A DNA stretch of 63,825 nt, filler included, from Collodictyon triciliatum (Eukaryota), in assembly GCA_043381765.1 (NCBI GenBank). It is 8 parts of 8 records of this genome, joined end to end, with 100 filler letters (N's around TTAATTAATTAA, not from the genome) between each part and the next. Parts side by side here need not be neighbours in the genome. Positions count along the whole stretch, not along the records: positions 25,757 to 34,240 come from JBHJMP010003408.1; 7 more parts are not named here. One strand, written 5' to 3'. Below the pieces are notes generated by a model. It saw only the letters and a program-made list of their open reading frames with translations. It searched no databases and had not been told where the DNA came from. The position numbers and the translations under genes are program-made. How positions within the stretch are numbered: position 1 is the first letter of the stretch; each line of letters opens with the position of its first letter. Below are positions 11,193-45,124 of this stretch, in pieces.

Positions 11193-11287
<95 letters not shown>

Positions 11288-17177: not shown

Positions 17178-17467
17178 TTGGTCTTGGTCTTGGTCTTGGT
17201 CTTGGTCTTGGTCTTGGTCTTGGTCTTGGTCTTGGTCTTGGTCTTGGTCTTGGTCTTGGTCTTGGTCTTGGTCTTGGTCTTGGTCTTGGTCTTGGTCTTG
17301 GTCTTGGTCTTGGTCTTGGTCTTGGTCTTGGTCTTGGTCTTAGTCTTAGTCTTGGTCTTGGTCTTGGTCTTGGTCTTGGTTTTGGTTTTGGTTTTGGTTT
17401 TGGTTTTGGTTTTGGTTTTGGTTTTGGTTTTGGTTTTGGTTTTGGTTTTGGTTTTGGTTTTGGTTTG
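17178..17467. repeat. (TTGGTC)n grading into (TTGGTT)n microsatellite
   Basis: Directly visible at the scaffold start. Confidence 0.9.
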
Positions 17468-17561
17468 TGTATCAATATTTGCTAGTTGCTTGAATTATCA
17501 TGTAATCTGTTTGTAAGCAAATAAAAGTCACCATATAATTTTAAAAAAAAAATACATGTAG

Positions 17562-20500
17562 GGTACAAACATATCCGAGTGGCTCAAGTTGGATTTTGAG
17601 AGGTGGGGAGACATTCTTTCCAGAAATCCGAGGTAGTGGTGAGTGGGATAGAGTTATGATGGGAATAGCGCAATCTTCTAGACGTTGTGGAAACTATAAG
17701 ACATGCTTGATGGCTTTAGAGGTTCTTTTGTATCCATTTTATCTTTATTTTTGATCAATTAGTTCAAAGCCATGCTATCGATAGGTATATATATATATAT
17801 ATTGGTTCATCTTTAAATTGCAATACGTTGTTATCTATTAGAAAGTCAGTGATCTGCAAATAATGAGTGATTACGAACGTGCTCTCTGTAATATGGATCA
17901 AAGTCCGTTGAAGATTTCTCTACTATTGAATTTTTGTGAATCATACTGGAGGAAAGACGAAACATCTGCAAGATTGGGCGTGAAAGAGAGCATTATCAAC
18001 ACATTCGATGCCAGAAAGAATCAAAAATATCACAGAAAAGACTCACCAGATACAAACTCACTTATTCTCACAGACGCAGTTTTTAGAATATTTGATTGTT
18101 GTCTATCTTTGCAATCTTCAGATAGGATTGCAGCATTTAGAAAATTATCTGATATTATTGGCTACACTGCAACCGATGACATTTATGTATTATTGCTTGA
18201 AATTTTCTCTATTCTCCCTTCTTTTTTTTTATTACAAAGCAATTATTGCTTGAATCTTTTTATTCTAAAAAAAAAAAAAAAACACAGGTGTTTTTAGCTT
18301 GTGGAAGCATTTTAATTACATTATGAATATAGGCTGTTTTCGATGAATTGGCGACCATATCCTTGAGAGTGCCTGACGTCCATCCCGGGCTGTTAAATCG
18401 GATTTCAGACTGGTTTTTCGGCCGTGGGTGTCGAAATGTAGCTCTTTTTACCCAACCCGAGATTAATTATGACCCGTCATCATCAGACCTTAATCAGATA
18501 CGATTGGTTTTAGAAGATTACAATAGCAGAACAGGTTTGTCTCCCAAAATGTCATTTAATTGTATGCATTTTTGGTTTCTCATCATATTGATGCAGAGAA
18601 ATCGCAATACGAGCAAAACAAACTGATTCTTGATTTGGTGAGAATCATTCCTTTGATCACAGAAGATGTTGAGGTAGCAGTATTTTGGTTTTTATCCTAC
18701 GATGTCATCACCTCAGAACTTTTCTTTTATATTCTGGCATATATATTTCTCACTTTAGGCTTTAAAAAAGAAATACCCTCTTTTTAATAATACCCTATTG
18801 TCGTTAAACGTTTCTCGATTTCAAAAATGAAGATTGTGAATAAATCAAAGCTAAGCGCTCTCTTGCAGGCATCCAACAGTGTCATTCTACCTTTGATTAA
18901 CCAATGTGTATCTGATCTGTGTGAGTTGGAGGCTAATGGAGTCTTTGATGCTCTCGTAGAACTTAGAAGAACAACTATGCTCCACTTCAAAGTAAGTCTA
19001 TATCATGTCTCTATTCCCTTTTCTTTTAAAAAAAAAAAAAGCAAGTTCATTTCATTACTGGGTGTATGATAATATTATTCATTTTCATTTGTTTCATGAT
19101 GATGGTATGTTTTAGACCGCTTTGAAGTTTGAATTTGAATCCATGATTGCACCCGATTGGAGAGATATGACTGGTCTTCGTCTGGATAACACACTAACAA
19201 ATTGGTCAAAACCCTGCAAGTTGAAGTCGCCTTTGAGGATTTTGCGGTTTGTTGAATTACGACTTAAAAGGAATACCCCAGTAAAATATCACATCTATAC
19301 TGAATTGCTTTTGGGCAGGATATTGGCTCTGTCGGGTTCATACCTGAATGATGTTTTTGAGTCTTACCTATCAAAGACAACCTCTCGTGATTGGATAAAT
19401 GTTATCCCGCAGGTATGATTGTCGATTTTTTATGTTGGTATTTTTCTTTTTAAAAAAATAAATTACCACTCATTGGAATATATGCACTTGATTTCATAGC
19501 TTTTTTCGTACATCAACAACCCATCCATGTTTATGAGGTCAGTAAGTAGCAGAATTTTGATGATTCTCGCATGTGAAACACCGGAATCAGTGGTGAGCTA
19601 ATCATGGATTGTACTGATGGTTTTCTATCCTTCATATCTAATTTATATATTATAAACTGATTGGATTTTAAACTGAATGCATTTAAATATATTACAAGAT
19701 ATACCAAGTATTTGAGAGGCTTTCCAACGATTCCCAGCAAGGCATTATTTCAGGTCGTTATTTAATTTATTTATTTTTTGCTTCTTTTTTCATTTGAAAG
19801 TGTGAGCTTAGTTATATCATAGTACTAATATCATAAAAGTTTTTTTAAAAAAAAATAAAAAAAAAAGCATTAACTTTCAGAAAAATTCACATAATAGACA
19901 TGTTTTCGCACATGACTCGGAAACTTCCTGACATGATGGCAGCGACGAAGGTTTTTGTCCATGAATGCACTCGAATTTCAATTTTATGGGATGAAATATG
20001 GATTCGAATATCGCCAAAGGTAATTGCGTTATAAATAAATTAAACGTTCTTTCGCAATTCCAAGTATATACGGACTCCCACTTCAATTATACCGTTATGA
20101 GAAATTTCTGTTGTGTCCAGATTACTGCGGAATGTTCCATTATATCGCGAAAGCTTAAAGAGGCAAATAGAGCAAGCAACCCAACAAATAGCAAAGAAGT
20201 TAAGGTATTATAGTGTATAAATTAGTTTTTATTTTCTTCCTTTTAATTTGTGCAAAATGGGGGAGGTTTTGGCTTTGCACAATTTATGACTGAGTATTTT
20301 GTATTTAAAATACAGAATTTCACTGCTTACATCTTTATCCCCCTGTTTATATATGAGAAAAGATATAAAATCACTTTTCTTTATGACCTTATTGGTTGAA
20401 AACAAAATTCCATGATAAAGTAAGCAAATATTTATACAATCCCTAGATATCCATCGCAAGCGAATTATACCCTAGTTTGGTGGCCCCTCTACTGCACACT

Positions 20501-21263
20501 CTAAGCGAGAAGTTGAGAATCTGTAGCTCACCCGCAGAAACACAGATGGAAAAGAGCTTTCAATTCAAATACCTCAAAAGTAAATTGTATACCTTACGTA
20601 TTACTATCATGAATCCATTATATTTTGCAGTGACATTCAAGATTGCATGGGAAATGAAGAAAACATGCTATCCCTTTTAGACACAAAATTTTGTTGGTGA
20701 CTTTGTGCTCATTACGAAAGTGCAAATCAAAGCCACACTATGTCCATGACTTCTGCTTTTAAAGTTGTACATTTTGTAGATTTGACCGAATATATTGAAC
20801 TACTCAAAACACCATCTGATTTGTCGGATGTTGAGGCCTCATGGAAACCACTTCAAGACGTAATGATGATTTTAAAATAGTTTATACTCATGCCTCAAAT
20901 AAATTTTGATTTGTGGAAGCAGACTATGGAGTATGCCTAACGAAATTAATGTGGATACTTATGAATCACTTTAGTTACTCGCTGAGATGGCATCAATTCA
21001 CTCAAAAAAGCATGAATATACTCTTTCGGATATTTCCCCTGTATTGGCCAAGCTTCCAAATAACCTTGTTAGTCGCCCAGGAGCAACAAACGAAGCAGTA
21101 TGTCATTTTAATCAACCATACTTGGAAGAATGGGTCGGATTACAAGCACTGGATATCGTTGATGATGGTTTTTTGTTTTGTTTTTTGTTTTGTTTTTTGT
21201 TTTGTTTTTTGTTTTGTTTTTTGTTTTGTTTTTTGTTTTGTTTTGTTTTTTGTTTTGTTTTTT

Positions 21264-21323
<60 letters not shown>

Positions 21324-24300
21324 TTTGTTTTATTTTGTTTTATTTTGTTTTATTTTGTTTTATTTTGTTTTATTTTGTTTTATTTTGTTTTATTTTGTTT
21401 TTGATAGGGCAATTCGATTTCGGACAATGTTGATAATGTGGAGTCGCATGTTCGTGTACTTCATTCGAAGACAAAGCCAAAGAAGCTAACCGTCAAGAGC
21501 TCTATGGGTTCAAGCTACTCATATTTGCTGAAGGGAAACGAAGATTTGGTAATTGAAAAATATGGTGAATGAGTTTATTTTATTCGAAAAAATAAATAAA
21601 TAAATAAAGTATCCTGCTTACTTTTCTTTTAATGGATTGGTAAGATATTAAATTGTAAATAGCATTTGGACGAAAGAATCATGCAATTGTGTAGGGCAGT
21701 AAATGAATTATGGAAAATTGATACGGAGGTAACCTTGTGCATAATTGATTGTAACAACGGGCATACGTAACTAATTTTTTATTACATTTCGGTATCTTCA
21801 ATATTTTGCCTGTATTTTACCAAATTTACTGAACTTTTGTTTTTTGATTATTATTATTGTGTCTCTTTTGGGGAACCTTTTGATTCATACCAAAGACCTC
21901 TGTTCGGAAAATCAGAGTCAGAAATTATTCCGTCATTCCACTGAATCAAGATACCGGCCTTTTGGAATGGGTCGATGGGTTAGTGCAAGAAAATATTATG
22001 TCATGCTTGAATCTCGATTAAAAGAAATAAAATTGAACACACAGTACCATCCCGCTGATTGATTTGTATCACAACTGGCAAACTGCAGTATCCATGAGAG
22101 AGTCGATTCACAGTAAGCCCGTCCGTTATCGAATACATTAGCAGTCAACATGTACATGCATGTTAGAATTTCTAAACGCTTTAGCTCTAGTTGTTATAAC
22201 CAACCCAAAAAAATTACATAATTATTTTTAATTAGGCTCTCCAACTCCTCCTACCATCCAGAAACCCATAGAAAACTATCGTGCTCGCATGGTTGTTGCT
22301 TTAAACGAACTAAACTTGAATATAAGCGCCAGAAAGAGTTGGCCTCGTAAAGTAATGGAGACTGTTTACAAAGAGATGAAGAATCAATCCCCAAAGTACT
22401 ATTTCTTACCTTGGTTTACTTTTGCATGCATTCGTTTCGTTAATTTAATGACGTTATTGTTTATGTGACGATTTTGAAGTATGTTTTCCTTCATATAAAA
22501 GAGTTAGAAGAGGGGAGTTTTAAACGTGTATGTCCTCTCTGGGGCACCTCTTTTGTGACGTACTTTGTTTGGAAGAATTTATTTATTGACCTATTGTTTA
22601 TCCATAAACGTAGGTATTTACTCAGCGAAGAGCTTTGGATATCAAGTCGAAGTTTAGAAGATTGGACTTCAAAATGCAGAAACTACAGAATATCGTTGGT
22701 CGCAAATTCAATTTTGGGTACCAGTTCGGCAATTTTCAATTTTTGAGAGAGAGAAACAAAAAAAAATGTGTTATAAAATTTGCAAGTAGTCAATATTTAA
22801 GACTCCCATCTTACCGTGTCCATATAGGCTACTTGATTGGACTCGGTGATAGGCACTTGGGAAACATTCTCTTTGACATGACGACAGGAGAGCTTATTCA
22901 TATTGATTACAGTACGCATTTTGAACCCCACGAATTGATGCATATTTGTGCATGTTTTTTTCTTAAAGGAAAAAAATGTAGTCGATGCAATACGCTATTT
23001 GACCATCAAATGATAATGTGCCGATTTGCCTCGTATTTAATTTGTACGTATCAGGTATCTGTTTTGAGAAAGGAACACAACTGAGGATTCCAGAAAATGT
23101 TTGTGTGGTTTTTGTTTGTGGTTTCTTTTGCAACCTAAATTTCTAATCGATAGGAGTAAAGAATAGCATTTTGCTGTAGTGAATGACATTGCATCTTACA
23201 ATCCACATAGGTTCCCTTCCGACTCACTCCAATTCTTATCGATGCTCTTGGTGTCGCGGGAGTGGAAGGCCCATTCCGAATGGGCGCGGAGCACGCTTTG
23301 AAAACACTTCGAAAGTATATCGCCCATCGCATTTTTCAAACATGAAAAAAAGAAAAGAAAAGAAAAGAGCTATGTTTTTTTTTCTTTATTCGATTCAATG
23401 TAGAAATAACATATGTTGATTATTCAATCTGGCATGATTATTACAACGCAATTTGTTATGATCTTATCAGTTTTTCATGAAAGAAACACATATGTCCTAA
23501 AACATGCAAATTCCTTTGTAAAAGTGGTCAAGACATCATCATCAACACCCTATCTGTTTTTATGAACGACCCACTGCTCGACTGGACTATCACGTATGAA
23601 ATATGCGAGCAATATGTCACTTTTACTTGCATTTTTTGTCTTGATCTAATTTTAAAAAAAAAAAGCGCAAAGGTACTCTATGGCACACTTTAAAGTTATT
23701 GATAGCAAAATCTGCTGTTCACGAAAATCTGGTAATTAGGAACGAGACTCCTAAAGAGAATGAGCTTAATCCACAGGAAGACCAAGCAGATGCCGAAAAT
23801 GTTGTAGTCACAGAAGGTAGGCATTTTCAGCAAATAAGTTGCTGCTGTGTACCTGCCGGTCACTTTTTCTTCTTCCCCGAAAGGAGGCAAATATTTGAAT
23901 CGGAGAGGTTCAGCTTGTCGTATATCAACGGAGAGGGGGAGGGAGGAAAAAAACAAAAATGAAGGGGATGAGACAATCACACATGCGCATACTATTTGGT
24001 AAAGGTATTCGAGGAGTCCGCTATGCAGAGCAAGTCCTTTCCCGCATAGAAACGAAGCTGAAAGGCTTCGACTTTGCGCCAGGAGTCCAGCCACTGTCCA
24101 TCTCAGAGCAGGTCACACATTTCATTGCCACCAAACATTACATACATCACATACATTACACACATCACATACATATGCACCGCCGTAATTCGAGAAAAAG
24201 GGCACGAGAATGAACATGCCGAGGTTCCCCGGACTGAGACTCACATTTCACATAAACGCGGACATAAACATACAAACAGGTTGCACGACTCATTCAAGAG

Positions 24301-24357
24301 TCCACCAGCGACGACAACCTCTGCACCATGTATGAAGGATGGACGCCGTGGATATAG
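17562..24357 (+). CDS. SMG1: PIKK-family kinase SMG1 (nonsense-mediated decay), 5'-partial, many exons
   Basis: FAT-type AQSSRRCGNY and WINVIPQ|LF; SKTKPKKL...YSYLLKGNEDL|HLDERIMQ; GLGDRHLGNIL..IHIDY|SICFEKG; VPFRLT; DPLLDWT; FATC KLKGFD...LSISEQ|VARLIQESTSDDNLCTMYEGWTPWI*. KTKPKKL, HLDERIMQ, IDY and YEGWT.W are SMG1-type signatures. Confidence 0.9.
21168..21402. repeat. Intronic T-rich simple repeats and poly-T inside SMG1
   Basis: Directly visible. Confidence 0.85.
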
Positions 24358-24588
24358 CCGGGGAGAAAGCGCACCAGAGTCACCTGATCGGCCGCTTATA
24401 AAAGCAAGACAAACGGCGCCAAAGCCAGAGACTTGCATCATCCCCGCCAACGCAGCAGAGCGAGCGACAACCAAGAGGAGCACCGATTTCTCTACTGTGA
24501 TTAACTTTTTAGTTTGCATCTCACCACCATTGCACGTCAAGCCACGCCTTACTGTGTACACAGCGAGAGTGAGAGCGAGAGTGAGAGC

Positions 24589-24629
<41 letters not shown>

Positions 24630-24649
24630 AAAGCATGAGAGAAGGCGGA

Positions 24650-25484
24650 TCAGAGATTGCAGCGGGCCTCGCGGGGGTTCTCGTTGCGGGGTGTGCAGAT
24701 GTAGTCTGTGGATGCGGGGCAGACGAACTGCTGGCCGGGGACCCAGGCATCGGGCTTGCTTGCGGCGGGCTTGTGCATGTTGTTCCAGAGGGTGACTGCG
24801 ACGCCCTGGTGGGTGACTGCGGCGAAGTGGAAGCAGTCTGGGGCAAAGTACTCGCGGATGGGGCGGCCGGCACTATCGCGGGGGATCTGGGTGTTTTCGT
24901 ACATGGGCTGATAGGCCACTGCAAAGTCGTCGCGGAGATAGCGCGGGTCTGCGGCGAGCTCGCGGAGGAGGACGTTGTAGTCTGCGCATGTGCGGGAGAC
25001 CTGCGCGCGGACGTTTGCGTCGTTGGACGTGCCGCATGCGCAGACGGCCTGGTGCACGGCAGCGCAGCCGAGGAAGCCGGAGCCCTCGACCGCCTTGAGC
25101 TTGGCCACGTCGATGACGCCGACCAGGTTGACCAGCATGCGCGGCACTTGTGTGAGGATGTCGAGCGTCGCGCGCACGCTGCTGGCAAAGACGCTCGGTG
25201 AGTCCTGCGCTGGGTCCTTGCACACGCGGCACAGGTTGTTGCCGCCGATAAAGAGCGTGACAATCTTCCACTCCCCGGAGTAGTCTGCCCGTTCTCGCAG
25301 CAGCCGCACAAGCTCCGTCGCCTGCCCCGCCGTGTCCTGCGCAACCGCCCCGCTCACCGCCACGTTCAGTCCCTTCTGCCCGCTGCCAATCCCCAACGAG
25401 TATCCCGCCACGCGGCTGCTGTACGCCCGCACGATGTTGGGCAGCGTCACTGTGTTCCCCACGTTCCCGTCTCCTCCGATGCTC
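24650..25484 (-). CDS. Phospholipase B1-like SGNH/GDSL lipase, last exon (5'-partial)
   Basis: SIGGD..VTLPNI, LNVAVSGA, WKIVTLFIGGNNLC, YFAPDCFHF (DxxH) and LWNNM; acceptor aaacag at 25484/25485. Confidence 0.9.
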
Positions 25485-25756
25485 CTGTTTGCACATGCAT
25501 ACACAGATAGATAGGCGAAGATAGATGTCTGAGTCAGTATATTTCTCTCTCATGGTGTATCGCTCCATGTATGTTGTTTTTTTTTGGTTTTTTTTGGTTT
25601 TTTTGGTTTTTTTGGTTTTTTTGGTTTTTTTGGTTTTTTTGGTTTTTTTGGTTTTTNNNNNNNNNNNNNNNNNNNNNNNNNNNNNNNNNNNNNNNNNNNN
25701 TTAATTAATTAANNNNNNNNNNNNNNNNNNNNNNNNNNNNNNNNNNNNNNNNNNNN

Positions 25757-28700
25757 TCACAAGTGGAGTTTCTCAACTCAAATCCTATCTTGCATTCGCA
25801 ATCGGTTGAATAAAGAGAGCCATTGTTTTTTGTCGTAAATTTATCGCCACAGGATAAGCAGAAATTCGTGCCGTTTGTTGGTTTGTATGCGCCAAGTCTG
25901 CACGGAACACACTCACTTCCATCCTCAAAGTTTCCTGGAGGACATGTACAAATAGCATCATATGACACATAGGTATATAAGCATTTACAATAATCGATTG
26001 ATATGGAACCTTCTTTTATTGTGGTTGAGCGTGTCGGGCATAGGTTGCATGATGTGGTTCTTTCTGAGCTGTAGCTTCCATTCGGACATGAGATACATGA
26101 AGATTGATTATACGAGCCAGTTTTATTGTTGAATGTTCCCGCTGGACATGATGTGCATGATGCTTGACCATCTCTATCATTCCAAGTACCTTGTGGACAT
26201 TCGATACATGATTTGTTTCCATAGGAGCCGAAGTTTGAGTTGAATGTGCCTTTTGGACAAGCATAGCATGATTGTGAGTCTTTTGTCATACCTTCTTTTT
26301 GATAGAATCCTGGTGAGCATGAGTTGCATGATGCGCTTCTTTCTGAGCTGTAGCTTCCATTTGGACATGAAATGCATGAAGATTCATTAAATGAGCCAGT
26401 TTTGTTGTTGAATGTACCAGCTGGACACGATGTGCATGATGCCTGGCCATTCTTGTCATTCCAGGTACCTTGTGGACATTCGGTACATGATTTGTTTCCA
26501 TATGAGCCAGAGTTCGAGTTGAATGAGCCTTTTGGACAAGCGTAGCATGATTGTGAATCTTTTGTGATTCCTTCTTTTTGATAGAATCCTGATGAGCATA
26601 AGCTACATGATGCGCTTCTCTCTGAGCTGTAGCTTCCATTTGGACATGAAATGCATGATGATTGATTGAATGAGCCAGTAATGTTGTTGAATGTACCAGC
26701 CGGACATGATGTGCATGATGCTTGTCCATCTCTATCATTCCAAGTGCCTTGTGGACACTCAATGCATGATGAGTTTCCATATGAGCCGGATTTTGAGTTG
26801 AATGTGCCTTTTAGACAAGCGTAGCATGATTGTGAGTCTTTTGTGACACCTTCTTTTTGATAGAATCCTGATAAACATAGACTGCATGATGAGCTTCTTT
26901 CTGAGCTGTAGCTTCCATTTGGACATGAAATGCATGATGATTGATTGAATGAGCCAGTTTTGTTGTTGAATGTACCCGCTCGACATGATGTGCATGATGC
27001 TTGACCATCTCTATCATTCCAAGTGCCTTGTGGACATTCAACACATGATTTGTTTCCGTATGAACCGAAGTTTGAGTTGAATGTGCCTTTTGGACAAGCA
27101 TAGCATGATTGTGAGTCTTTTGTGATTTCTTCTTTTTGATAGAATCCTGGTGAGCATAAAATGCATGATGAGCTTCTCTCTGAACTGTAGCTTCCGTTTG
27201 GACATGAAATGCATGATGATTGGTTGAATGAGCCACTTTTATTGTTAAATGTACCAGCTGGACATGATGTGCATGATGCTTGACCATCTCTATCATTCCA
27301 AGTGCCTTGTGGACATTCAATACATGATGAGTTCCCATATGAGCCGGATTTTGTGTTGAATGTGCCTTTTGGACAAGCATAGCATGATTGTGAGTCTTTC
27401 ATTATTCCATCTTTTTGGTAGAATCCTGATAAACACAAACTGCATGATGCGCTTCTCTCTGAGCTGTAGCTTCCATTCGGACATGAAATGCATGATAATG
27501 GATTGAATGAGCCAGTTTGATTGTTGAATGTACCAGCTGGACATGATGTGCATGATGCTTGACCATCTCTATCATTCCAAGTGCCTTGTGGACATTCAAT
27601 GCATGATTTGTTTCCATATGAGCCGGAGTTCGAGTTGAATGTGCCTTTTGGACAAGCATAGCATGATTCAGAGTCTTTTTTTATTCCTTCTTTTTGATAG
27701 AATCCTGATGAGCATAAGCTGCATGAAGAGCTTCCAACTGAGCTGTAGCTTCCATTTGGACATGAAATGCATGATGATTGATTGAATGAACTAGTTTGAT
27801 TGTTGTATGTGCCAGCTGGACATGATGTGCATGATGCTTGACCATCTTTATCATTCCAAGTACCTTGTGGACATTCGATACATGATGTGTTTCCATATGA
27901 GCCGGATTTTGAGTTGAATGTGCCTTTTGGACAAGCATAACACGATTTTGGGTCTTTTTTTATTCCTTCTTTTTGATAGAATCCTGATAAGCATGAATTG
28001 CATGATGCGCTTCTCTCTGAGCTGTAGCTTCCATCTGAACATGAAATACATGATGATTGATTGAATGAGCCTGTTTTGTTGTTAATTGTACCAGCTGGAC
28101 ATGATGCGCATGATGCTTGACTATCTCTATCATTCCAAGTGCCTTGCGGACATTCAGTACATGATTTGTTTCCATATGAGCCGGAGTTTGAGTTGAATGT
28201 GCCTTTTGGACAGGCATAGCATGATTCCGAGTCTTTTAATATTCCGCCTTCTTGATAGAGTCCTGGTGAACATGAGATGCATGATGCGCTTCTTTCTGAG
28301 CTGTAGCTTCCATCTGAACATGAAATACATGATGATTGGTTTAATGAGCCTGTTTTGTTGTTCATTGTACCAGCTGGACATGATGTACATGATGCTTGAC
28401 CATCTTTATCATTCCAAGTGCCTTGTGGACATTCAATACATGATTTGTTTCCATATGAGCCGGAGTTTGAGTTGAATGTGCCTTTTGGACAAGCATAGCA
28501 TGATTCCGAGTATTTTAATATTCCTTCTTCTTGATAGAATCCTGATAAACACAGACTGCATGATGCGCTTCCAACTGAGCTGTAGCTTCCGTTTGGACAT
28601 GAAACACATGATGATTGATTGTATGAACCAGTTTTATTGTTGAATGTACCAGCCGGGCATGATATGCATGATGCTTGACCCTCCTTATTATTCCAAGTAC

Positions 28701-31700
28701 CTTGTGGACATTCGATGCATGATGATTTTCCATATGAGCCGGAGTTTGAGTTGAATGTGCCTTTTGGACAAGCATAGCATGATTCCGAGTCTTTTGTGAT
28801 TCCTTCTTTTTGATAGAATCCTGGTGAACACAAGCCGCACGACGAGCTTCTCTCTGAGCTGTAGCTTCCGTCTGAACATGAAATGCATGATGATTGGTTG
28901 AATGAACCAGTTTTGTCGTTATATGTACCCGCTTGACACGATGTGCATGATGCTTGACCATCCTTATCATTCCATGTACCTTGTGTGCATTCAATGCATG
29001 ATTTGTTTCCATATGAGCCGGATTTTGAGTTGAATGTGCCTTTTGGACATGTGAAGCATGATTTAGAGTCTTTTATGATTCCTTCTATTTGGTAGAATCC
29101 TGATGAGCATAAGCTGCATGATGAACTCCTTTCTGAGCTGTAGCTTCCATTTGGACATGAAATGCATGATGATTGGTTGAATGAACCAGTTTTGTCGTTA
29201 TATGTACCCGCTGGACATGATGTACATGATGCTTGACCATCTCTATCATTCCAAGTACCTTGTGGACATTCAGTACATGATATATTTCGATAAAAACCGG
29301 AGTATGAGTTGCATGTGCCTTTTGGACAAGCATAGCATGATTCCGAGTCTTTTAAGATTCCGTCTTCTTGATAGAATCCTGGTGAACATAAGCTGCATGA
29401 TGAACTTCTTTCTGAGCTGTAGCTTCCATTCGGACATGAGATGCATGATGATTGATTGAATGAACCAGTTTTGTTGTTGAATGTACCTGCTGGACATGAT
29501 GTGCATGATGCCTGACCATCTCTATCATTCCAAGTACCTTGTGGGCATTCGACACATGATTTGTTTCCATATGAGCCGGATTTTGAGTTGAATGTGCCTT
29601 TTGGACAAGCAAAGCATGATTTTGAGTCTTTTGTGATGTCTTCTTTTTGATAGTATCCTGATGAGCATAAACTGCATGATGCACTTCTTTCTGAGCTGTA
29701 GCTTCCATTTGGACATGAAATGCATGATGATTGGTTGAATGAACCAGTTTTGTCGTTATATGTACCCGCTGGACATGATGTGCATGATACTTGACCATCC
29801 TTGTTATTCCAAGTACCTTGTGGACATTCGACACATGATTTGTTTCCATATGAGCCGGGGTTTGAATTGAATGTGCCTTTTGGACAAGCGTGGCATGATT
29901 TTGAGTCTTTTATAATTTTATCTTTTTGATAAAATCCTGATGAGCACAAGCTGCATGATGAGCTTCCAGCTGAGCTGTAGCTTCCGTTCGGACACGAAAT
30001 ACATGATATTTCATTATATGAACCAGTCTTATTATTAAATGCACCAGCTGCACATGATGCGCATGATGCTTGACCATCTTTATCATTCCAAGTACCTTGT
30101 GGACATTCGGTGCATGATTTGTTTCCATATGAACCGGATTTAGAGTTGAATGTGCCTTTTGGACAAGCGTGGCATGATTTTGAGTCTTTCGTTATGTCTT
30201 CTTTTTGATAGAATCCTGGTGAACATGAGATGCACGATGAGCTTCTTTCTGAGCTATAGCTTCCGTCTGGACACGAAATGCACGATGATTGATTGAATGA
30301 GCCAGTTTTATTGTTAAATGTCCCAGCTGGACACACTATACAATCCTTTCTATGAATATTTCCATAAGTCCCCTGAGGGCATCGAATACAAAATATCTTA
30401 TCGTAAGCACCAAAACTTGGGTTATAAGTTCCATCAGGGCAATTGTAGCATGATACTTGACCAGTCGTATTTCCATAAGTTCCTGAATCACACAATGAGC
30501 ACATAATGGATGCTGATGATGACGAAAAGCTTCCTTTTTCACATGGGATGCAATCCATCTCACTTTGGGATACAGTTTCACTATTATAAGTTCCAGCCGG
30601 ACATTCATTACAATCGATTGCTCTAGTCGAATTTGAATATGTTCCAGGTTGACAGGGAGAACAAAAAGTCTTTCCAGGTTCTTTATTATAGAATCCATGA
30701 GGACAATCAAAGCATGTTGTTTGTCCTCTTATGTTATTGTACGTTCCTGGTTTACATTCATCACAGGAAGTCTGACCAGTTTTGTTGTTAAAGGTTCCTT
30801 CCAAACAATAAAGACACGAAACTTGGCCTGAATATGGTGTATATGTCCCAATATCACATTCAAGGCATGATTTTTGTCCATTATTTGAATTGTATGTACC
30901 ACTTTCACAAAAAGTGCACATTGATTGGCCTGCTAGAGGGCTATATGTTCCAGGGGCACATAGAAGGCATGAACCAATATTTTTGGATCCTGACGATGGG
31001 TTGTATGTACCAATGGGGCATAATGCACACGATGGACTACCACCAAGATTATAACTACCAGGAGGACATATTGCACAATTTTTTAATGATGAGTCGTAGT
31101 AGTATCCCGCTTGACAAAACCCCCAAATTTTGATTGTTTTATCACCACTTCCAGATATAATTTTTGAATCGCCTAGAGGTATAGCCAAACTATAAATATT
31201 ACTGCTATGCCCAGTGAGCACCCGAATTAAATTTCCATTTGAAGCATCCCAAATTCTTATTGTCCTGTCAATACCTCCAGAAATTATAACAGAGCTGTCT
31301 AGAGAAAAAGATACATCAATAATGGGTAAAGAATGTCCAAAAATTGTGCGAATCAAAGCTCCATCAGAAAGATTCCAAATTTTGATAGTTTTATCGTCAC
31401 TTCCGGAAACAATTTTTGAACCATCAGGATCAACAGCAACACTATAAATGTAACTTGTATGGCCAGTCAATGTGCGAATCAAAGCTCCATCTGAAAGATT
31501 CCAAACTTTGATTGTTGTATCATTACTTACAGAGACAATTTTTGAATCATCAGGAGTAATAGCAACATGACTCACCCCAAGGGCATGACCAGTAAGTGTA
31601 CGAATCACAGCTCCATCAGAAAAATTCCAGATTCTGATCGATTTATCATAGCTTCCAGAGACAATTTTTGAACCATCAAGGGTAACTGCAACACTGGTAA

Positions 31701-34240
31701 CACCAGAAGTATGTCCATTCAATGTGCGAATCAAAGCTCCATCTGAAAGATTCCAAACTTTGATTGTTGTATCATTACTTACGGAGACAATTTTTGAACC
31801 ATCATGAGTTACAGCAACATGGTTCACCCCAAGGGCATGACCAGTAAGTGTAAGAATCACAGTTCCATCAGAAATGTTCCAGATTCTGATTGTTCGGTCA
31901 TAACTTCCAGAGACCATCATTGAGCCATCAGGAGTAACTGCAACAGTACGAACTTCACTGGTATGACCGATTAATGTGTGAATCAAAATTTCTTCAGAAA
32001 TCTTCCATATTTTTATGGTTCTATCACCGCTTCCAGAAACAATTTTAGAATTATCAGGAGATATAAAAACGCTGAAAATATAGCTTTCGTGATGAACTAA
32101 TGTACCAATCAAAGCTCCATCAGAAAGACTCCATATTTTGATTGTGTTGTCTGCGCTACCCGAAACAATTTTCGAACTATCAACCGTCACAGAAACACTG
32201 TAGACATACCCAACATGACCTATCAATGTGCGAACCAAAGTTCCATCAGAAAGATTCCATATTTTGACTGTTTTGTCAGCACTCCCAGAAATTACTGTAA
32301 AACCATGTGATGTAATGGTAACACTATAAACATAACTCATATGACCATTCAATGTGCGAATCAAATCTCCATTAGAAAGATTCCAAATTTTTATTGTTGT
32401 ATCACCACTTCCAGAAACAATTTTTAAGCCATCAGGAGAAATTGTGGTACTGAGTACCCGACTAGAGTGACCAGTCAATGTGCGAATCAAAGTTCCTTCT
32501 GAAATATTCCAAATTTTTATTGTTGTATCACCACTTCCAGAAACAATTTTTGAGCCATCAGGAGAAATTATAACACTGTAAACATAACTACTATGACCAT
32601 TCAATGTGTAAATCAAAGTTCCATCAGAGAATTTCCAGATTTTTATTGTTTTGTCCCAACTTCCAGAAACTATTTTTGAACCATCAGGGCTTGAAATGGC
32701 ACAACTAACCCAACTAGTATGACCCGTCAATGTGCGTATCAAAGCTCCATCTGAAAGATTCCAAACTTTTATTGTGCTATCATCATATCCAGAAATTATT
32801 TTCAATCCATCAAAAGATATTGTGGTATGCAATGCGATTTGCTTACTTACTGATACAATTCGACTGAATGAAAAATCTGGTATGAACCACACTTTAATTG
32901 TTCTATCATCACCACCAGAGACGATTTTTGAGCTATCAGAAGTGATACGGACACTACGGACATAATTTAAATGATTTATGAGAGAACTGACCAAATTTCC
33001 ATCAAAAAGATTCCAAATTTTTATAGTTTCATCAACACTTCCGGAAACAATTTTTGAGCCATCAGGAGAAACAGCAACACTATAAACATATCCATTATGG
33101 CCAATTAATGTGCGAATCAAAGCCCCATCAGAAGGATTCCAAATTTTGATTGTGGTATCAGCACCCCCAGAAACAATTTTTGAACCATCAGGAGAAACAG
33201 CAACACTGTAAACATATCCATTATGGCCAATTAATGTGCGAATCAGAGCTCCATCAGAAAGATTCCAAATTTTGATTGCACTGTCGCCGCTTCCTGATGC
33301 AATTATTGATCCATCAATGGAAACAGCAATATTGTAAACATAACTGTTATGTCCATTTAATGTGCGAATCAAAGCTCCGTCAGAGAGATTCCATATTCTG
33401 ATAGTATTATCGCCACTTCCAGAAACAATTTTTGAGCCATCCGGAGTGATAGCAACACTGTAAACATAGCTTTTGTGTCCATTTAATGTGCCAATTAAAG
33501 TTCCATCAGAGAGATTCCAAATTTTTATATTACTATCTGCGCTTCCTGAAACAATTTTTGAGCCATCAGGAGTAACAGCAACACTGTAAACATATCCATA
33601 ATGACCGATTAATGTGTGAATCAAAGCTCCATCAGAAGGATTCCAAATTTTGATTGTATTATCATCACTCCCTGAAATAATTTTTGAATTATCTGGGGTA
33701 ACATAGACACTACGGACACTATTAGTATGACCAGTCAATGTGAGAATCAAAGCTCCATTGGAAAGATCCCGAATTTTAGTAATTTTATCATCCCCTCCAA
33801 ATACGATTTTTGAACCATCAGGAGTAATAGCCACACTATTAATGTACCTTGTTTGGCCATTCAATGTTCGAATCAAATCTCCATTGTCTAAATTCCATAT
33901 TCTAATTGCGCTATCGGCACCCCCTGAAACAACCTTTGAACCATCAGGAGTAACAGCAACACTGTGAACATATCCATAATGACCGATTAGTGTGTGAATC
34001 AAAGCTCCATCAGAAAGATTCCAAATTTTGATCGTTTTGTCCCAGCTTCCAGAAACAATCTTTGATCCATCAGGAGTAATAGCAAGACTCTTGACAAAGC
34101 CTGTGTGAAAACCTCTAGTGTGAATCAAAGTTCCATCAGATATTTTCCAAACTTTAATTGTATTGTCCCAACTTCCAGAAACAATTTTGGTACCATCAGG
34201 AGTAATAGAAACAGTTTGAACATATCCTGTGTGTCCTGTT
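25757..34240 (-). CDS. Giant WD40-repeat (at least 25) + Cys-rich (GCC2/GCC3 or ephrin-receptor-like) repeat protein, open at both ends, intronless over the whole scaffold
   Basis: One frame is open for all 8,484 nt. 42-aa repeats GH..V.SVA.SPDGSKIVSGS.D.TIKIW span 31123-34240 and are followed by CxxCxxGTY/F repeats. Confidence 0.92.
26020..30380 (-). repeat. 279-bp (93-aa) coding tandem repeat, about 15-16 copies
   Basis: The C(P/T)QGTWN motif recurs 15 times at 279-nt spacing between about 26190 and 30100. Confidence 0.92.
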
Positions 34241-34437
34241 NNNNNNNNNNNNNNNNNNNNNNNNNNNNNNNNNNNNNNNNNNNNTTAATTAATTAANNNN
34301 NNNNNNNNNNNNNNNNNNNNNNNNNNNNNNNNNNNNNNNNAAAACATCCTTCATGTATCATCACCCTAAAAAAAAAAAAAACTAGTTGAGTTACTCACGC
34401 GTTACAAGATAGGAAGCGTAGCACAGCAGCGAAGGCC

Positions 34438-36138
34438 ATGGACTTTGATACTTCTGAGCAGCACCCTCGCAGCTCTCTCTTTTTAAGCACCCCTTCGCAG
34501 CCTCCTCCAAAGTGCGAGCATCCCAGTGCCGGAGCGCATCACAACCTCCCACATACCCCAGAAGCAACATCTGCCGATGCACGCAATAATGATAGTCTCG
34601 GTGCTCCAGGGGATTGTGGGATTGACTACCCCCAAGACTTTCGCATGCGCACAGGCGATCTCCACTCTAAGGGCGATGCGGAGACAGAGAAACAATCCCA
34701 ATACAGACAGGAGCATGAACGCAGTGGGTATTTTTTTGGAGAAGTAGGAGACACACAAAAGCTAGAGGAACGAAGGGAGCTGACTTTCAAGCACTGCACC
34801 AAGGTGGCGAGCGCGATGTGGATTAGAGCTGTGAGAAGCGTTTGTGGTGTTTTGGTAGCAAATATGGCCTTTTTATGGATTTACTATATCCCAGCTATAG
34901 TTATCGCACATAATGCACTTCTTTTTCTGAGATATATATTGTACAGGGTTATTTTGGCTGAATTAACTAACTCATTATTCTGGATTTCTATTTCGATAGC
35001 CGCTTCAAATATATTTACGATTCGTTACACATGGAGGGCAATACTTTTCTCGTTTCTTCCAGGATATATCTCAGATAGCATTTTTTATCCTACCCCACAA
35101 TTTAGAAATGTTGAATTATATAGAAATGTATCCAGTATTGTTAGTGTCATGTGTTTGGCTCTTGGAGCTTATATAATATATAGGTATAGCCCTACAGACG
35201 AAAACAAAGAACATGCCGATGAATACCATCGCCTTACAAAAGACGGGTCTGTTTCTGCATTGTTCAAAGGAATTCTTGGGTTCTCTGTTTTCATCTATTT
35301 TATTTTTTTGAACATACTCTCCTACTTGGAATCAGGTTTTTGGCTAAAGATAGTTTTCAGATTTATTGTTATTCCATTGTGCTTTAGGATTTCCAAATGG
35401 TACCAAATGAGGGTTATTTTTAAACTTTCAAAAAGACAAACTGATAGAAGGCTTATTGTGTACAAAATGTGTAATCATTATATTCAGCTAATTAGCCGCA
35501 TCTTGATATCAAACTTCACGACAAAAAGCGCCCTTTCATATCAATTTGTGCTCATTAACTTTAGTGGCTCGCTTGAGGAAGTCCTGTATACAGTATCTTT
35601 CGAGTACAAAGAGAGATCACTTTATAATATTTCAAGCAAATGTGCCGATTTTTATCAAATGTGCGCATCATATGTGATCGGAAATTGCATGAATACTGTC
35701 GTGCCCGTCTCAGAATTCGATAACCCTGATAATATCATCCAGTCAGACGCAATAGCCTCTGATGCAAAGAAAAAATCAAAAGAAGACACCCACGTGAAAG
35801 AGGCTGTTTCTTTTCGTGCGAGGTATATCTACGACGACATTATTTCAGAAATTTACTCAATATTTCTGGCACCTCTCATCATTTATTTCACTCAACATGT
35901 TGCATCCGAAGATTTGGCATTTAACTTCATGTCGACTTATCAAGAGTGCTTCTATCAAATTATTATTCAGCTCCTCTTCGAACTCATCGGGGATTCATTT
36001 TCACTTACTTACCATCTTTACAGAGGACACATGAATGTAACAAATTATGTTGATTGGAGGCCAATGGGGCAGCAATTGCTTTTCGTTTGGTCGCTGTACT
36101 GTACCCTCTCGATTCAAAGGATACTTTTACTGTCTTAA
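34438..36138 (+). CDS. Uncharacterised multi-pass membrane protein (566 aa), paralog A
   Basis: Intronless ORF with many hydrophobic segments; colinear similarity to 36900..38483. Confidence 0.8.
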   Translation: MDFDTSEQHPRSSLFLSTPSQPPPKCEHPSAGAHHNLPHTPEATSADARNNDSLGAPGDCGIDYPQDFRMRTGDLHSKGDAETEKQSQYRQEHERSGYFFGEVGDTQKLEERRELTFKHCTKVASAMWIRAVRSVCGVLVANMAFLWIYYIPAIVIAHNALLFLRYILYRVILAELTNSLFWISISIAASNIFTIRYTWRAILFSFLPGYISDSIFYPTPQFRNVELYRNVSSIVSVMCLALGAYIIYRYSPTDENKEHADEYHRLTKDGSVSALFKGILGFSVFIYFIFLNILSYLESGFWLKIVFRFIVIPLCFRISKWYQMRVIFKLSKRQTDRRLIVYKMCNHYIQLISRILISNFTTKSALSYQFVLINFSGSLEEVLYTVSFEYKERSLYNISSKCADFYQMCASYVIGNCMNTVVPVSEFDNPDNIIQSDAIASDAKKKSKEDTHVKEAVSFRARYIYDDIISEIYSIFLAPLIIYFTQHVASEDLAFNFMSTYQECFYQIIIQLLFELIGDSFSLTYHLYRGHMNVTNYVDWRPMGQQLLFVWSLYCTLSIQRILLLS

Positions 36139-36460
36139 GTATGTTTGGAAATGAAGAATTATGACTTTGTGTGAATATTATTTGGCACGTATTTTATTTT
36201 CAGATACCGCGGCAACCAGAATTCATTATGAACCCCACAGTTTCAAATGACCAGAACATGGCTATTTTATTTAGAGTTGTGCTGATATTCCGAGCCCTGA
36301 AACCAATAAAGAAAAGAAAAGAAAAATATACAATAATCATGATATCATCTTTTAGGACAGTGAATTTTTTTAAAACTCGATTTTGTACATTTTATACTTG
36401 GCGGTGACGTAGGTTTTTGTACTTCAATAAAAAGATTATTATTGTGTTTTTCAAATCCAT

Positions 36461-36600
36461 GTTTTTCTTTTTCTTTTTTCTTTTTCTTTTCTTTTTCTTT
36501 TTCTTTTTCTTTTTCTTTTTCTTTTTTCTTTTTCTTTTTCTTTTTCTTTTTCTTTTTCTTTTTCTTTTTCTTTTTCTTTTTCTTTTTCTTTTTCTTTTTC
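36461..36600. repeat. (TTTTTC)n microsatellite between the convergent paralogs
   Basis: Directly visible. Confidence 0.85.
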
Positions 36601-36899
36601 CATAAAATCATCCCCTTTTTGAAGCACTTCTAACAGAGCCCATCTGTATCCCCACACAAGCTACGATTTAACAAGTTTTGTAATGCGTAAGCGCAAAAAA
36701 AAAAAAAATGCTCCACAAGCAAACATCACAAAGTACTCTCAAGGAAAGGTGACCAATCACTAGCTAGAACGACATTGTGTGTAAAATGGAAATAATACAG
36801 CAGCGGACAGCCAATCCCGATTATTATATGAAAGCTTATATCTGCTTTATAATGATTACTTTTGGATTGGTTGCGTGGAAAGGGGAAAAAAAGCTCTCT

Positions 36900-38483
36900 T
36901 CATTCCCGTAAAGTTATATTACGGTGGATGGACAAGAAACAAAAACACGACCAGACAAACAAAAGCTGGCGATTCATCAGCTTCCATTTAACATCTTGAT
37001 GCATGCTAATATTCCCCTTCCAAATATCATACGAAAGAGAGAATAGGTCTCCAAAGAAATTGAAGATCAACTGAACCAGCACTTGGTATACACACTCTTG
37101 GATAGAAGGTATCCTGTTAATCTTTGCATTTTCTGATAAAACAAACCCAAGCAAATATACCAAAAACGGTGCGAGAAAAATAGAGTAAATCTCGGATGAC
37201 ATATCGTCACATATGTATCTAGCCCGAAAAACAACCGCTTCCTTGATGTAGAGGTCTTCTTCGGATATCACTTCCGTATGAATGAAGTCCGAGGGGACTA
37301 TGCTGTCCAAACGTCGCATATCAGTCACAGGTGATAAGGATACCAAACGATTTCTTTTTCTATATGACCATATTCTATGATAAATTTTTGACACAGAAGT
37401 GATTATTTTGAAGGTCATTCTTGTTTGTTCTTCAAAGAAGACGGAGTGAAATGAATCGGTGATTACACAAGCGAGATTAATTAAAATGAATTCCCAAGAA
37501 AGAGCTCCTTTTGCCGAAAGGTTTGAAATGAATATTCGGCCTATGAATTGGATAAAATGATTGCACATTTTGTTAACCACTAGGCGTTTGTCCATGTCTT
37601 CTCTAGACAGGCTAAATATGACTCTTTTTTGATACCACTTCGAGACACTAAAAAAAATTGGGAAAATAAGCAGTCGAAAGAAAATCTTGACCTCAATATC
37701 TGCCTCCAAATATAATGATAGCATGTTGAAGAATCCAAATATAACAAAAACAAAGAAACCGATGACTCCCTTAAACAAGGCATTCGTAGAGCCATCCTTT
37801 GTGAGACGATAAAATTTCTCCTCCTCCTCAAGCATCCCATTTGGCTTTCGAGACTTACGAATCAAAAGTAATCCAAAACCGAAGAACAAAAGTAGCAGAG
37901 CGTTTCTTAAGTTAATCATGAAAAAGTTGGAGTACAACTGTTCTATGAAATAAAAGGTATTGTCGGTGACATAGGCGGGAACTAGCGCACAGATGATTGC
38001 TCTTCTTGTAAACTGGAAACTAAATATGTTGATTGCAGCAAGGGTTATGGAGGTCCAAAGACACATCAACATCAAGGCCTTGAGCACTGTGTCATACACA
38101 AACTCCTTGATTAGTTCAAGAAACTTTGGCGCAGCAATAACAGCCGGAAGATAGAAGAAGGCCATGAAAAATATGTTAGCTGCGAGTATCGATATAATTC
38201 TTTTGATAATAGCAAACCACATCCCTTTTGCATATTTGAATGACTCAACCGCGCCTTTCTTCTTGGGCGCGTCAACTTCGATACTGCATGGGTTGGAGCC
38301 TCGTTCAAGGTCTTTTTGATTCTCACAGTGCTGTTCCTGGAGCTGCAACGCTCGGCCACATTCACTGACTGTCTTCATGTCTGAATATATATTCACGAGT
38401 GCAACAGACTTTTCATCAGGCGTGTTTGAAGCGTTCGAGATCGGGGCTTCTGCTTCGTCGTGGGTCTCCCTGGCTTGGGTCAT
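36900..38483 (-). CDS. Uncharacterised multi-pass membrane protein (527 aa), paralog B
   Basis: Shares RLTKDGS..ALFKG, SKWYQ.RVIF.LS, KMCNH.IQ and KEAV.FRARYI.DD..SEIYSIFLAP with paralog A. Confidence 0.8.
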   Translation of the reverse strand: MTQARETHDEAEAPISNASNTPDEKSVALVNIYSDMKTVSECGRALQLQEQHCENQKDLERGSNPCSIEVDAPKKKGAVESFKYAKGMWFAIIKRIISILAANIFFMAFFYLPAVIAAPKFLELIKEFVYDTVLKALMLMCLWTSITLAAINIFSFQFTRRAIICALVPAYVTDNTFYFIEQLYSNFFMINLRNALLLLFFGFGLLLIRKSRKPNGMLEEEEKFYRLTKDGSTNALFKGVIGFFVFVIFGFFNMLSLYLEADIEVKIFFRLLIFPIFFSVSKWYQKRVIFSLSREDMDKRLVVNKMCNHFIQFIGRIFISNLSAKGALSWEFILINLACVITDSFHSVFFEEQTRMTFKIITSVSKIYHRIWSYRKRNRLVSLSPVTDMRRLDSIVPSDFIHTEVISEEDLYIKEAVVFRARYICDDMSSEIYSIFLAPFLVYLLGFVLSENAKINRIPSIQECVYQVLVQLIFNFFGDLFSLSYDIWKGNISMHQDVKWKLMNRQLLFVWSCFCFLSIHRNITLRE

Positions 38484-39671
38484 TGCGGTGTCCGTTTCGA
38501 CTGTTGTATCACAATTACAGGATTAAGAGTATGTGCAGTCTATTATACAGATACATGGAATCAAGGATGCAGCATCTTGATGGTTTGCTTCTGGGGCCAT
38601 CTCTGCAAAGGCGTGTTCGGTACATCTTTGTTGTGTCTTGACTCAGTGCTTGGCAAAGCGAAACTATGCTACACGAAAAAGAATATACTTTGATGCAAGT
38701 GAAGATGACAATAAGGGATACTGACGCACCGAATTCAGACCCAAAAGTGTACATGCAACTATTATACTATTAGTTGGAATTATGCTATGTTTTTATTTAA
38801 TAAGATTCATATTATCCTAAATTGGTTTAATAAAACTAATTTAATCATAAATTCCACAATAATACACAAGTCCCTTGTTTCGGGCTCTGTTCTTTTCTCT
38901 CAACCTTGCCAGCACGGCGCATATGCAGCTAGAAGTCAGCAGCCAGATCTTGTTGCAGGGGTGAAGTGCATCTCTAAGAAAGCACAGAATCCACAGCCAT
39001 CGAGCCTCCTCTTCTGCGCTCGCGTCATGGTCAACGAACAGCACCTTTTCATCGCATGGCCGTAGACGAATCATGCGCAGGCAAGCCGGCTTCTCGTCCC
39101 TGGCTGTGTATATTTCGCCCTGCATTGCACCAGGGAACATAAATCAAGATGCAAGAAGAAAGGAAGGAGGAAGGAGGAAGAAAAAAAGAAAAAGGACAGG
39201 GAAATGCAGTTGGAAGTTTATTCCCTCATTCAGCCCATTTCAAAGGAAAAACTTTGCGGGCAAATGCCGTCTGTTTTGATAGTCCCTTGATTTTGATGGA
39301 GTGATTTTAGTTTTTTTTTTTTTAGTGTGTATTTTTTTATTATTCTTTGCACCCTGCTCTGCGAACGCGTCCGGGGTCATGGCAACGACGTTTGTTGAAA
39401 GGGAAGGTGTCCTGCAAGAGCTCTGACGAGTCTTAAAATCAAAGTAGGTTGAGGCGAATAAATCGTAGTGGGGCTCAGAGTTTGATCGTTCCGCTGATTT
39501 CCCTCAGCAGTCTTCGTCTGCTTTGTAGCAAGCAGGTTGTTTGGCTCTCTGCTCCAGTGCGAATAAGAAGATATCAATAGAGGCAGTTTTGGAGATAGCT
39601 AGACCCAAACGGAGTCGAAGAGAAACAAATAGGAAATACCAAAAAAAAAAAAATAATAAGAAAAAAACAGT

Positions 39672-42622: not shown

Positions 42623-42979
42623 TGTCTATGGGAAGGTCAGTTTTTTCCTTTTTCACTCTTTCCTTTTCGCATCTCTATATTTAAGCTGAGATATGTCCGC
42701 TTATTGTATGATAATCTGAGTGGATTTTTCGACAACGTTCACATCATGGTATAGCCGCTTCCTTGAATTATAGTGTTTTTATTTATTTACTTCTTTCCTT
42801 CTTTTTTTTTTTTTTTTTGCAATCNNNNNNNNNNNNNNNNNNNNNNNNNNNNNNNNNNNNNNNNNNNNTTAATTAATTAANNNNNNNNNNNNNNNNNNNN
42901 NNNNNNNNNNNNNNNNNNNNNNNNTTTAATTCAGACACCGCTTGCATGTTCGAGGCTGCTCTTGCTTTGTGCTGCTTCC

Positions 42980-44870: not shown

Positions 44871-45124
44871 GACGCACCCGATTAAAATGCCAATTACAAG
44901 CAATAAATAATTACCAACACAGTGTAGCGATGTGAAGCAAATTATTTGTATGATTTTATGAAGTATTCGAGAAAGTAAGTATACAACAGGTATTATGCTA
45001 TCCTATGTCCATTCCCTCTTTTACATGGTCTTCTTTGGTTAGTATCGCATATGCTTCTGCTATTTTGATGATGATGCAATCATCACCTCAGTCCGAGTCA
45101 TAAAGGCGCATGGCGTGCTGCAGC

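Follow-up and report, generated by a model that had tools for sequence, protein, structure and literature searches.

A Collodictyon triciliatum contig encodes a WD40 propeller array fused to a giant cysteine-rich stalk, a candidate surface receptor or adhesin

The stretch of Collodictyon triciliatum DNA analyzed here (the window; 63,825 bases from assembly GCA_043381765.1) is a chain of separate contigs, each ≈8.48 kb, with artificial spacers between them. Positions 25757–34240 are one entire contig of 8,484 nt (JBHJMP010003408.1), which encodes part of a giant protein in which an array of WD40 repeats is followed by a long Cys-rich stalk. Because the contigs are joined by artificial spacers, the neighboring pieces are uninformative on the genomic context of this one. 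On translation, the whole contig (25757–34240, minus strand) is one open frame, with 25758–34239 read as a single stop-free run of 2,827 codons that is open at both ends (P0001). An initial annotation of the window had described an intronless frame of at least 2,828 codons that meets a contig break; the frame stands, the count does not (2,828 is 8484/3, of which 2,827 codons are complete), and the break is real at both ends, where spacers flank the contig. At the contig GC content of 39%, a stop-free frame of 8.4 kb is not a product of chance, and the contig is probably part of the interior of a single, real gene in a microbial eukaryote.

The first part of the frame, residues 1–1039, consists of 25 WD40 repeats, of which 24 are complete and exactly 42 aa long and the first is a partial unit of 31 aa. 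The number agrees with that first reported, and the assignment follows from the Pfam profile (WD40, PF00400; E 4.6e-222, 24 stretches) together with the tandem ≈40-residue units and their GH and WD-type signatures. One degenerate repeat (residues 452–493, DNA 32761–32886) begins with FIPDF and lacks the GH; the earlier count of 14 repeats from this unit to the junction with the stalk and 11 upstream of it holds if the degenerate and partial units are included. Pairwise identity among the repeats averages 57% at the amino acid level (range 21–90%) and 68% at the nucleotide level, with 69% matches by Tandem Repeats Finder (TRF), which does not bear out their description as highly self-similar in the sense of HET-E. 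The WD units are older than the super-repeats of the stalk. At the conserved columns, 29% of repeat pairs differ by synonymous changes only, and the serine of column 32 uses five codons; at columns 12, 15, 17, 19, 35, and 37 (N-L-S-D-G register), 82% of pairs differ by non-synonymous changes. The repeats are thus under purifying selection, with six hypervariable columns that presumably lie on the top, or binding, face of the propeller, where the WD40 literature places such positions.

An AlphaFold model of residues 452–1160, built from an alignment of 21 sequences, has a predicted local distance difference test (pLDDT) score that exceeds 90 for the greater part of the 14 WD units and drops at model residues 250–300, a drop that coincides with the border between the first and second seven-unit sets. 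The 104 stalk residues included in this model score below 50, and the alignment held no Cys-rich relatives. The best Foldseek match is 2ymu, a 14-repeat "highly repetitive propeller structure" (44% identity over 586 columns; sequence match E 6e-150), which aligns to model residues 19–589 (VIA). Single 7-bladed propellers superpose on model residues 298–592 with Z scores of 45–50 and a root-mean-square deviation of 0.8–1.5 Å over 286–295 residues (VIA), among them the designed WRAP-T proteins, the T. curvata WD40 domain, WDR5, RACK1, and G-beta, and the predicted chain closes into a 7-bladed β-propeller. The last 14 WD units are therefore modeled as two closed 7-bladed propellers, as the initial 2 × 7 reading had proposed from the repeat count: repeats 12–18, starting with the degenerate unit (residues 452–745; 32005–32886, minus strand), and repeats 19–25 (residues 746–1039; 31123–32004, minus strand). 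An ESM Atlas search with residues 760–1400 returned only WD40 clusters, at scores of 0.84–0.86, below the level that counts.

Further upstream, the only unit that ends with KIR rather than KIW is the one that ends at residue 157, and the three internal propeller borders all start with a residue other than Asn, as do 4 of the other 21 units. Carried upstream, the 294-residue register would place further borders at residues 157/158 and 451/452. Repeats 5–11 (residues 158–451; 32887–33768, minus strand) would then form another 7-bladed propeller, and repeats 1–4 (residues 1–157; 33769–34239, minus strand) would supply the final 3.7 blades of a fourth propeller, which starts beyond the contig, giving at least 28 WD units in all.

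The remaining 1,786 aa form the stalk, which contains 197 Cys residues, 94 CxxC motifs spaced 16, 17, or 20 residues apart, and 73 full CxxCxxG[TSA][FYW] motifs; the ≈1,790 aa of such repeats originally estimated was thus close. It belongs to the Ephrin_rec_like family (GCC2_GCC3, PF07699), as indicated by the Pfam profile match (E 2.5e-272, 40 stretches), the regular Cys pairs, and the G-(T/S)-aromatic sequence after CxxC. Three parts can be distinguished, all on the minus strand. The first (residues 1042–1301; 30337–31116) comprises diverged CxxCxxG(T/S)(Y/F) modules. The second (residues 1302–2734; 26038–30336) is a 279-nt (93-aa) super-repeat of five two-cysteine modules, present in 15.4 copies at 87% nucleotide identity and carrying four conserved N-x-S/T sequons per copy. 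The third (residues 2735–2827; 25759–26037) consists of non-repeated Cys-rich modules with CxC patterns, and here the frame is still open where the contig stops. A full HMMER scan with the last 108 aa of the frame, which are not repeated, returned generic Cys-rich proteins and no consistent downstream architecture among the best 150 of 750 matches.

The only solved relatives of the stalk are MST1 (PDB 8tx1; E 4.8e-31, query residues 30–265) and ELAPOR1, whose known locations are extracellular or in an ectodomain, in keeping with the initial view of GCC2/GCC3-type repeats as surface modules. The Cys-rich tandem of MST1 is described as an extracellular glycosylated disulfide ladder with a spacing of ≈11 Å (PMC10602792), and Ephrin_rec_like modules are described as occurring in adhesion and complement proteins (PMC6993872). 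The comparisons with relatives cover 39 Cys-rich proteins (at least 8 Cys motifs each) and 157 WD-rich proteins among the matches listed in the protein searches. Among the 39 Cys-rich relatives, transmembrane (TM)-like segments in the last quarter number three or more in 27, one or two in 5, and none in 7, and 23 have a signal-peptide-like start.

The array and the stalk meet at residues 1041/1042, near DNA position 31116, on the same strand and in frame, with a two-residue Gly-Phe link (31117–31122, minus strand) from the last WD repeat to the first Cys module. One alternative is that the architecture is not real and that a short-read assembler joined separate WD40 and Cys-rich genes at ≈31116, a possibility that the initial annotation had itself named, at about 31100, as one that would overturn its reading. 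The assembly is fragmented, its contigs end in microsatellites or repeats, the 8,484-nt contig breaks within repeats at both ends, and no second example of the fusion appears among the matches listed. The correlation of relative synonymous codon usage (RSCU) between the two halves is only r = 0.30, a value that is hard to read because the repeats were amplified and are not independent. Against such an error, only one random join in six would preserve both strand and frame, and here both are kept without a stop. No k-mer of 20 bases or more around the junction recurs elsewhere in the contig, leaving no repeat of that size to mislead the assembler. The halves also share an unusually low GC content at third codon positions (GC3; 0.23 and 0.295), compared with 0.38–0.60 in six other open reading frames (ORFs) of the window and in the paralog described below, and both prefer AAA over AAG (49:5 and 93:9). 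The k-mer, GC3, and AAA results thus speak for a real fusion and the RSCU value against it, and we regard a chimeric join as quite unlikely.

The 2,827 aa contain no hydrophobic segment; the Kyte-Doolittle score of 19-residue stretches peaks at 1.27. Since no membrane-type segment lies between them, the WD40 head and the stalk share one side of any membrane, as would be expected of a type I or otherwise surface-anchored protein. The sequons that had been reported to recur in both parts exceed expectation in the stalk, where 59 are found versus 35.1 ± 4.9 in shuffled sequences. In the WD part, 13 of the 24 complete repeats start with N-x-S, 10 of these with NLS, and the density of 1.44 per 100 aa is the highest when set against 157 homologous WD regions (median 0.2, maximum 1.28); the WD part does not, however, exceed its own composition.

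Eukaryotic WD40 propellers are textbook cytosolic or nuclear interaction platforms, and the initial annotation took WD40 proteins to be intracellular. For this subfamily the premise is too strong: 29 of the 157 WD-rich relatives start with a Met and a signal-peptide-like segment, several with WD units directly after it, and these include proteins annotated as WD40/subtilase that are 53–56% identical to the array. Close relatives also include NACHT/STAND proteins of fungi, cyanobacteria, and Reticulomyxa (e.g., P0022, P0041, and P0163) at ≈40–48% identity, with the Reticulomyxa NACHT-WD protein only ≈40% identical. Because close relatives are of both the exported type and the NACHT/STAND type, the WD array alone cannot separate the cytosol from the outside, and the proposed descent from a redeployed NLR sensor does not appear to be needed.

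The protein could instead be an intracellular scaffold or STAND-type sensor, with a NACHT/NB-ARC-like or other cytosolic N-terminus and the Cys repeats as a structural or metal-binding extension. Many of the best WD matches are indeed the NACHT/STAND-WD proteins just mentioned, the blades carry no disulfides, no signal peptide is visible on the contig, and in their hypervariable columns the repeats may resemble NLR-type WD sensors such as HET-E. The stalk points the other way. Its relatives of known location are extracellular or ectodomain proteins, 32 of the 39 Cys-rich relatives have a TM-like last quarter and 23 of the 39 a signal-peptide-like start, and its 197 Cys residues lie in regular CxxC pairs among conserved sequons. 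We know of no cytosolic Ephrin_rec_like array. Together with the paralog, which appears to combine a hydrophobic start with a membrane helix, these points make a cytosolic sensor improbable, and we favor an extracellular location for the WD40/Cys-rich protein.

The paralog lies on another contig of the window (42925–51402), where a plus-strand ORF at 49486–50694 contains seven WD units that are 57–62% identical to those of 25757–34240. This identity exceeds that of every long match listed; only three junction-region alignments (58%, over ≈55 residues) are comparable. C-terminal to the WD units, the ORF encodes a Pro/Thr-rich linker, then a hydrophobic helix that scores up to 2.09 over 19 residues, and lastly a charged tail of 14 residues. 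The ORF has no in-frame ATG ahead of its WD part. The only model consistent with the sequence adds a putative first exon of 40 nt that starts at ATG 49449, followed by a GT-AG intron of 121 nt with its acceptor at 49610, for a predicted gene at 49449–50694 (plus strand; exon 1 at 49449–49488, intron at 49489–49609, exon 2 at 49610–50694). The N-terminus predicted in this way is hydrophobic and signal-peptide-like, with an 11-residue score of up to 2.75. If the model is right, the organism makes a type I membrane protein with a single WD40-propeller ectodomain of the same subfamily. We consider the paralog a candidate membrane-anchored extracellular WD40 protein and, as such, the most telling item for an outward location of the larger protein.

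Taking these data together, we propose, with moderate confidence, that the contig encodes part of a giant secretory-pathway protein that displays a propeller head on a rod and acts as a tall surface receptor or adhesin. A signal peptide would lie at the N-terminus, upstream of the contig. Canonical 7-bladed WD40 propellers, at least four in number given the 25 repeats seen and the at least 28 expected from the register, would form a distal, multivalent binding head whose few diversified contact positions correspond to the six hypervariable repeat positions. The head would be fused directly to a stiff, N-glycosylated rod of at least 94 two-cysteine Ephrin_rec_like modules forming a disulfide ladder. 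With MST1-like geometry, this rod may measure some tens of nanometers to ≈100 nm; the 11 Å spacing of MST1, applied to its ≈98 disulfides, would give a length on the order of 100 nm. Downstream of the contig, a single helix or, as most stalk relatives have, a multi-pass block would anchor the protein in the membrane. The propellers may bind a ligand such as the surface of prey, substrate, self, or a microbe, and the rod would keep them off the membrane. The continuous frame, the domain assignments, the propeller fold of the model, the absence of an internal membrane segment, and the selection on the repeats are observed, whereas the extracellular location, the anchor, the length of the rod, and the binding function are what we infer.

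A different outward reading makes the protein a secreted fiber or a matrix or coat component, such as a mastigoneme-like hair, cyst, test, or scale, in which the rod polymerizes or cross-links and the propellers mediate assembly. The nearest solved relative of the stalk, MST1, is a filament protein (PMC10602792), a last quarter free of TM-like segments is found in 7 of the 39 Cys-rich relatives, and the 15.4 copies of the 93-aa unit make an extreme repeat array. However, the 2,827 aa seen contain neither the Ig domains nor the polyproline helix from which the MST1 filament is built, most stalk relatives end in membrane segments, and the paralog appears to be membrane anchored. We consider a fiber or coat component unlikely.

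Several observations weigh against a surface receptor or adhesin. The signal peptide, anchor, start, and stop would all lie off the 8,484-nt contig, and the topology of the protein is wholly inferred because the contig contains none of them. The sequons of the WD part number 15 versus 11.0 ± 2.8 in shuffled sequences (z = 1.4), no more than its own composition predicts, and their high density relative to other WD regions is weak evidence because repeat copies are not independent. The blades have no disulfide adaptation, as their 1,041 aa include only 1 Cys, but this scarcity is not a discriminating sign of export because 27 of the 157 relatives are equally Cys poor. The structure model of three stalk super-repeats is poor (pLDDT 64), and the RSCU of the two halves correlates weakly, as noted above. 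The first exon of the paralog is itself a prediction, its cleavage region is a poor fit to the −3/−1 rule, and the position of its helix, 14 residues before the end, would also suit a tail-anchored cytosolic protein. The fusion, moreover, is found in no other protein or locus among the matches listed.

This last point comes from several searches. Word-indexed protein searches with residues 880–1280 and 985–1100, covering proteins of up to 4,948 aa, gave matches (the best 120 of 1,419, 49 of 49, and the best 120 of 327) to 279 distinct proteins, none of which combines WD40 repeats with the Cys-rich part. None of the best 150 of 750 HMMER matches to the C-terminal 108 residues contains a WD motif, and the fusion is absent from the best 80 of 98 confirmed metagenome loci, from nine prokaryote loci, and from one viral locus. 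In the literature searches we found nothing relevant on WD40 paired with Ephrin_rec_like or GCC2_GCC3, and no paper on this architecture among those on WD40 and Reticulomyxa filosa. The fusion is unusual, although analogs that combine a propeller with a Cys-rich part do exist (RCC1 proteins and CRINKLY4). One metagenome ORF (L072 1–2403, plus strand) is a further example of a propeller with a Cys-rich stalk, with CxxC Cys-rich repeats, then a different β-propeller-like region, and one chance WD-like motif. WD40 arrays are also combined with membrane segments, again an unusual pairing, in the metagenome proteins P0033, P0091, P0118, P0122, P0125, and P0194, which have ≈1,000 aa of WD40 propellers followed by four to seven TM-like segments; among the precomputed Pfam matches listed, Ion_trans (PF00520) occurs in P0033, P0091, P0122, and P0194, and PKD_channel in P0091.

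Outside the cell, propellers are usually of other families, such as YWTD, Kelch, FG-GAP, Sema, or RCC1-like. If our proposal is true, the canonical WD40 fold also serves cell-surface recognition in a eukaryote, and the protein is a tractable candidate for prey, self, or substrate recognition by an amoeboid or other protist. It is also possible, although doubtful on present evidence, that the protein represents an undescribed class of protist surface receptors. Such receptors would use WD40 propellers with hypervariable binding-face positions as outside recognition heads, an extracellular counterpart of the NLR/HET-E sensors, on a disulfide-laddered rod of ≈100 nm, in a small family that includes membrane-anchored single-propeller members such as that at 49449–50694. 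If the join is an assembly error, or if the protein is cytosolic, the finding is an ordinary one.

The rest of the window holds other coding regions. Two minus-strand ORFs, one for a Roc-COR GTPase (277–1923; Roc E 5.7e-19, COR-A E 6.1e-13) and, with that ORF upstream of it, one for a protein kinase (2445–4331; E 1.2e-34), probably belong to a single ROCO/LRRK-type kinase gene; such a gene marks a eukaryotic, signaling-rich genome. In the minus-strand ORF at 58209–59279, a class I Tyr/Trp-tRNA synthetase domain, present as its C-terminal half only, is fused to a tRNA_bind (EMAP-like) domain; the N-terminal half of the synthetase domain must be in upstream exons. Three ORFs of 517–566 aa on one contig, at 34438–36138 (plus), 36900–38483 (minus), and 41069–42622 (plus), have no Pfam match at E ≤ 0.001. 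In the region 24000–25600, local GC rises to 51% and ORFs of 230–375 aa overlap on both strands; the one ORF tested there, 24074–25201, has no Pfam match.

The contig pieces that make up the window occupy 1–8488, 8589–17077, 17178–25656, 25757–34240, 34341–42824, 42925–51402, 51503–59976, and 60077–63825. The artificial spacer at 34241–34340 has the form N44 + TTAATTAATTAA + N44, an identical one lies at 25657–25756, and the others are at 8489–8588, 17078–17177, 42825–42924, 51403–51502, and 59977–60076. Two N gaps fall inside pieces (12129–12517 and 45342–46291). Many contigs terminate in microsatellites, such as (GGCAAAAG)n, (GA)n, (CT)n, (TTGGTC)n, (GGTTTTTTT)n, and (CAATA)n, for example at 1–40, 8449–8488, 8589–8628, 17178–17217, 25600–25656, and 51503–51542. 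The assembly seems to break at simple repeats, a pattern like that of a fragmented short-read assembly.

Among known systems, the HET-E, HNWD, and NACHT-WD40 (STAND) proteins share the WD40 subfamily of the array (39–48% identity), its tandem propellers, and, probably, its few hypervariable positions. These proteins differ in being cytosolic with an N-terminal NTPase, whereas here the array is fused to an ectodomain-type rod. The repeats of HET-E and HNWD are also >80% identical to one another, a sign of concerted evolution; the 57% amino acid identity found here lies below that level. The 2ymu protein likewise has fourteen 42-residue repeats that form two 7-bladed propellers and is 44% identical, but its 577 residues, presumably from a cyanobacterium, make up a WD array that stands alone, without a Cys-rich part. 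The highest WD identity among the long matches listed (53–56%) belongs to P0031, P0032, P0039, and P0088, named "WD40 repeat protein/subtilase family serine protease." These metagenome-contig proteins, taken as bacterial by their source-given names, have a signal-peptide-like start, at once followed by WD repeats, and extracellular-type domains; the latter are protease and CARDB-type domains rather than Ephrin_rec_like.

For the stalk, the best solved relative is the Chlamydomonas mastigoneme protein MST1 (PDB 8tx1), an extracellular glycosylated disulfide ladder. MST1, which forms a filament and is without WD40 repeats, contains a polyproline-II helix along with nine Ig-like domains, whereas the 25 of 48 Pfam families shown for our protein include no Ig domain and the 2,827 aa seen contain no Pro-rich tract. 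P0130, P0131, P0146, and P0155 are uncharacterized giant proteins from public (meta)genomes in which, as here, several β-propellers are fused to Ephrin_rec_like repeats. P0130 and P0146 have a signal-peptide-like start, and this group includes proteins, P0130 for example, with at least 15 Ephrin_rec_like stretches and many RCC1 repeats. Their propellers are RCC1 rather than WD40, and in P0130 the Cys repeats come first.

A functional parallel may be the plant receptor-kinase ectodomain of CRINKLY4 (CR4/ACR4). It is described as an extracellular 7-bladed propeller, called "WD40" by its authors, that lies N-terminal to a Cys-rich TNFR-like domain; the propeller is the functional binding part and has one disulfide per blade (bioRxiv 10.1101/2020.08.10.245050). 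Our protein shares with it the placement of a propeller N-terminal to a Cys-rich domain on a single chain. CRINKLY4 combines one propeller with one Cys-rich domain of ≈90 aa, a TM helix, and a kinase, unlike the at least four PF00400 propellers and 1,786-aa rod found here, and the disulfide in every blade has no counterpart in a WD part with 1 Cys in 1,041 residues. By analogy, then, the WD40/Cys-rich protein would work like CRINKLY4 without being a member of its family and, if our proposal is true, would add a clear case of a propeller head on a Cys-rich stalk to those of CRINKLY4 and the RCC1 and Ephrin_rec_like proteins.

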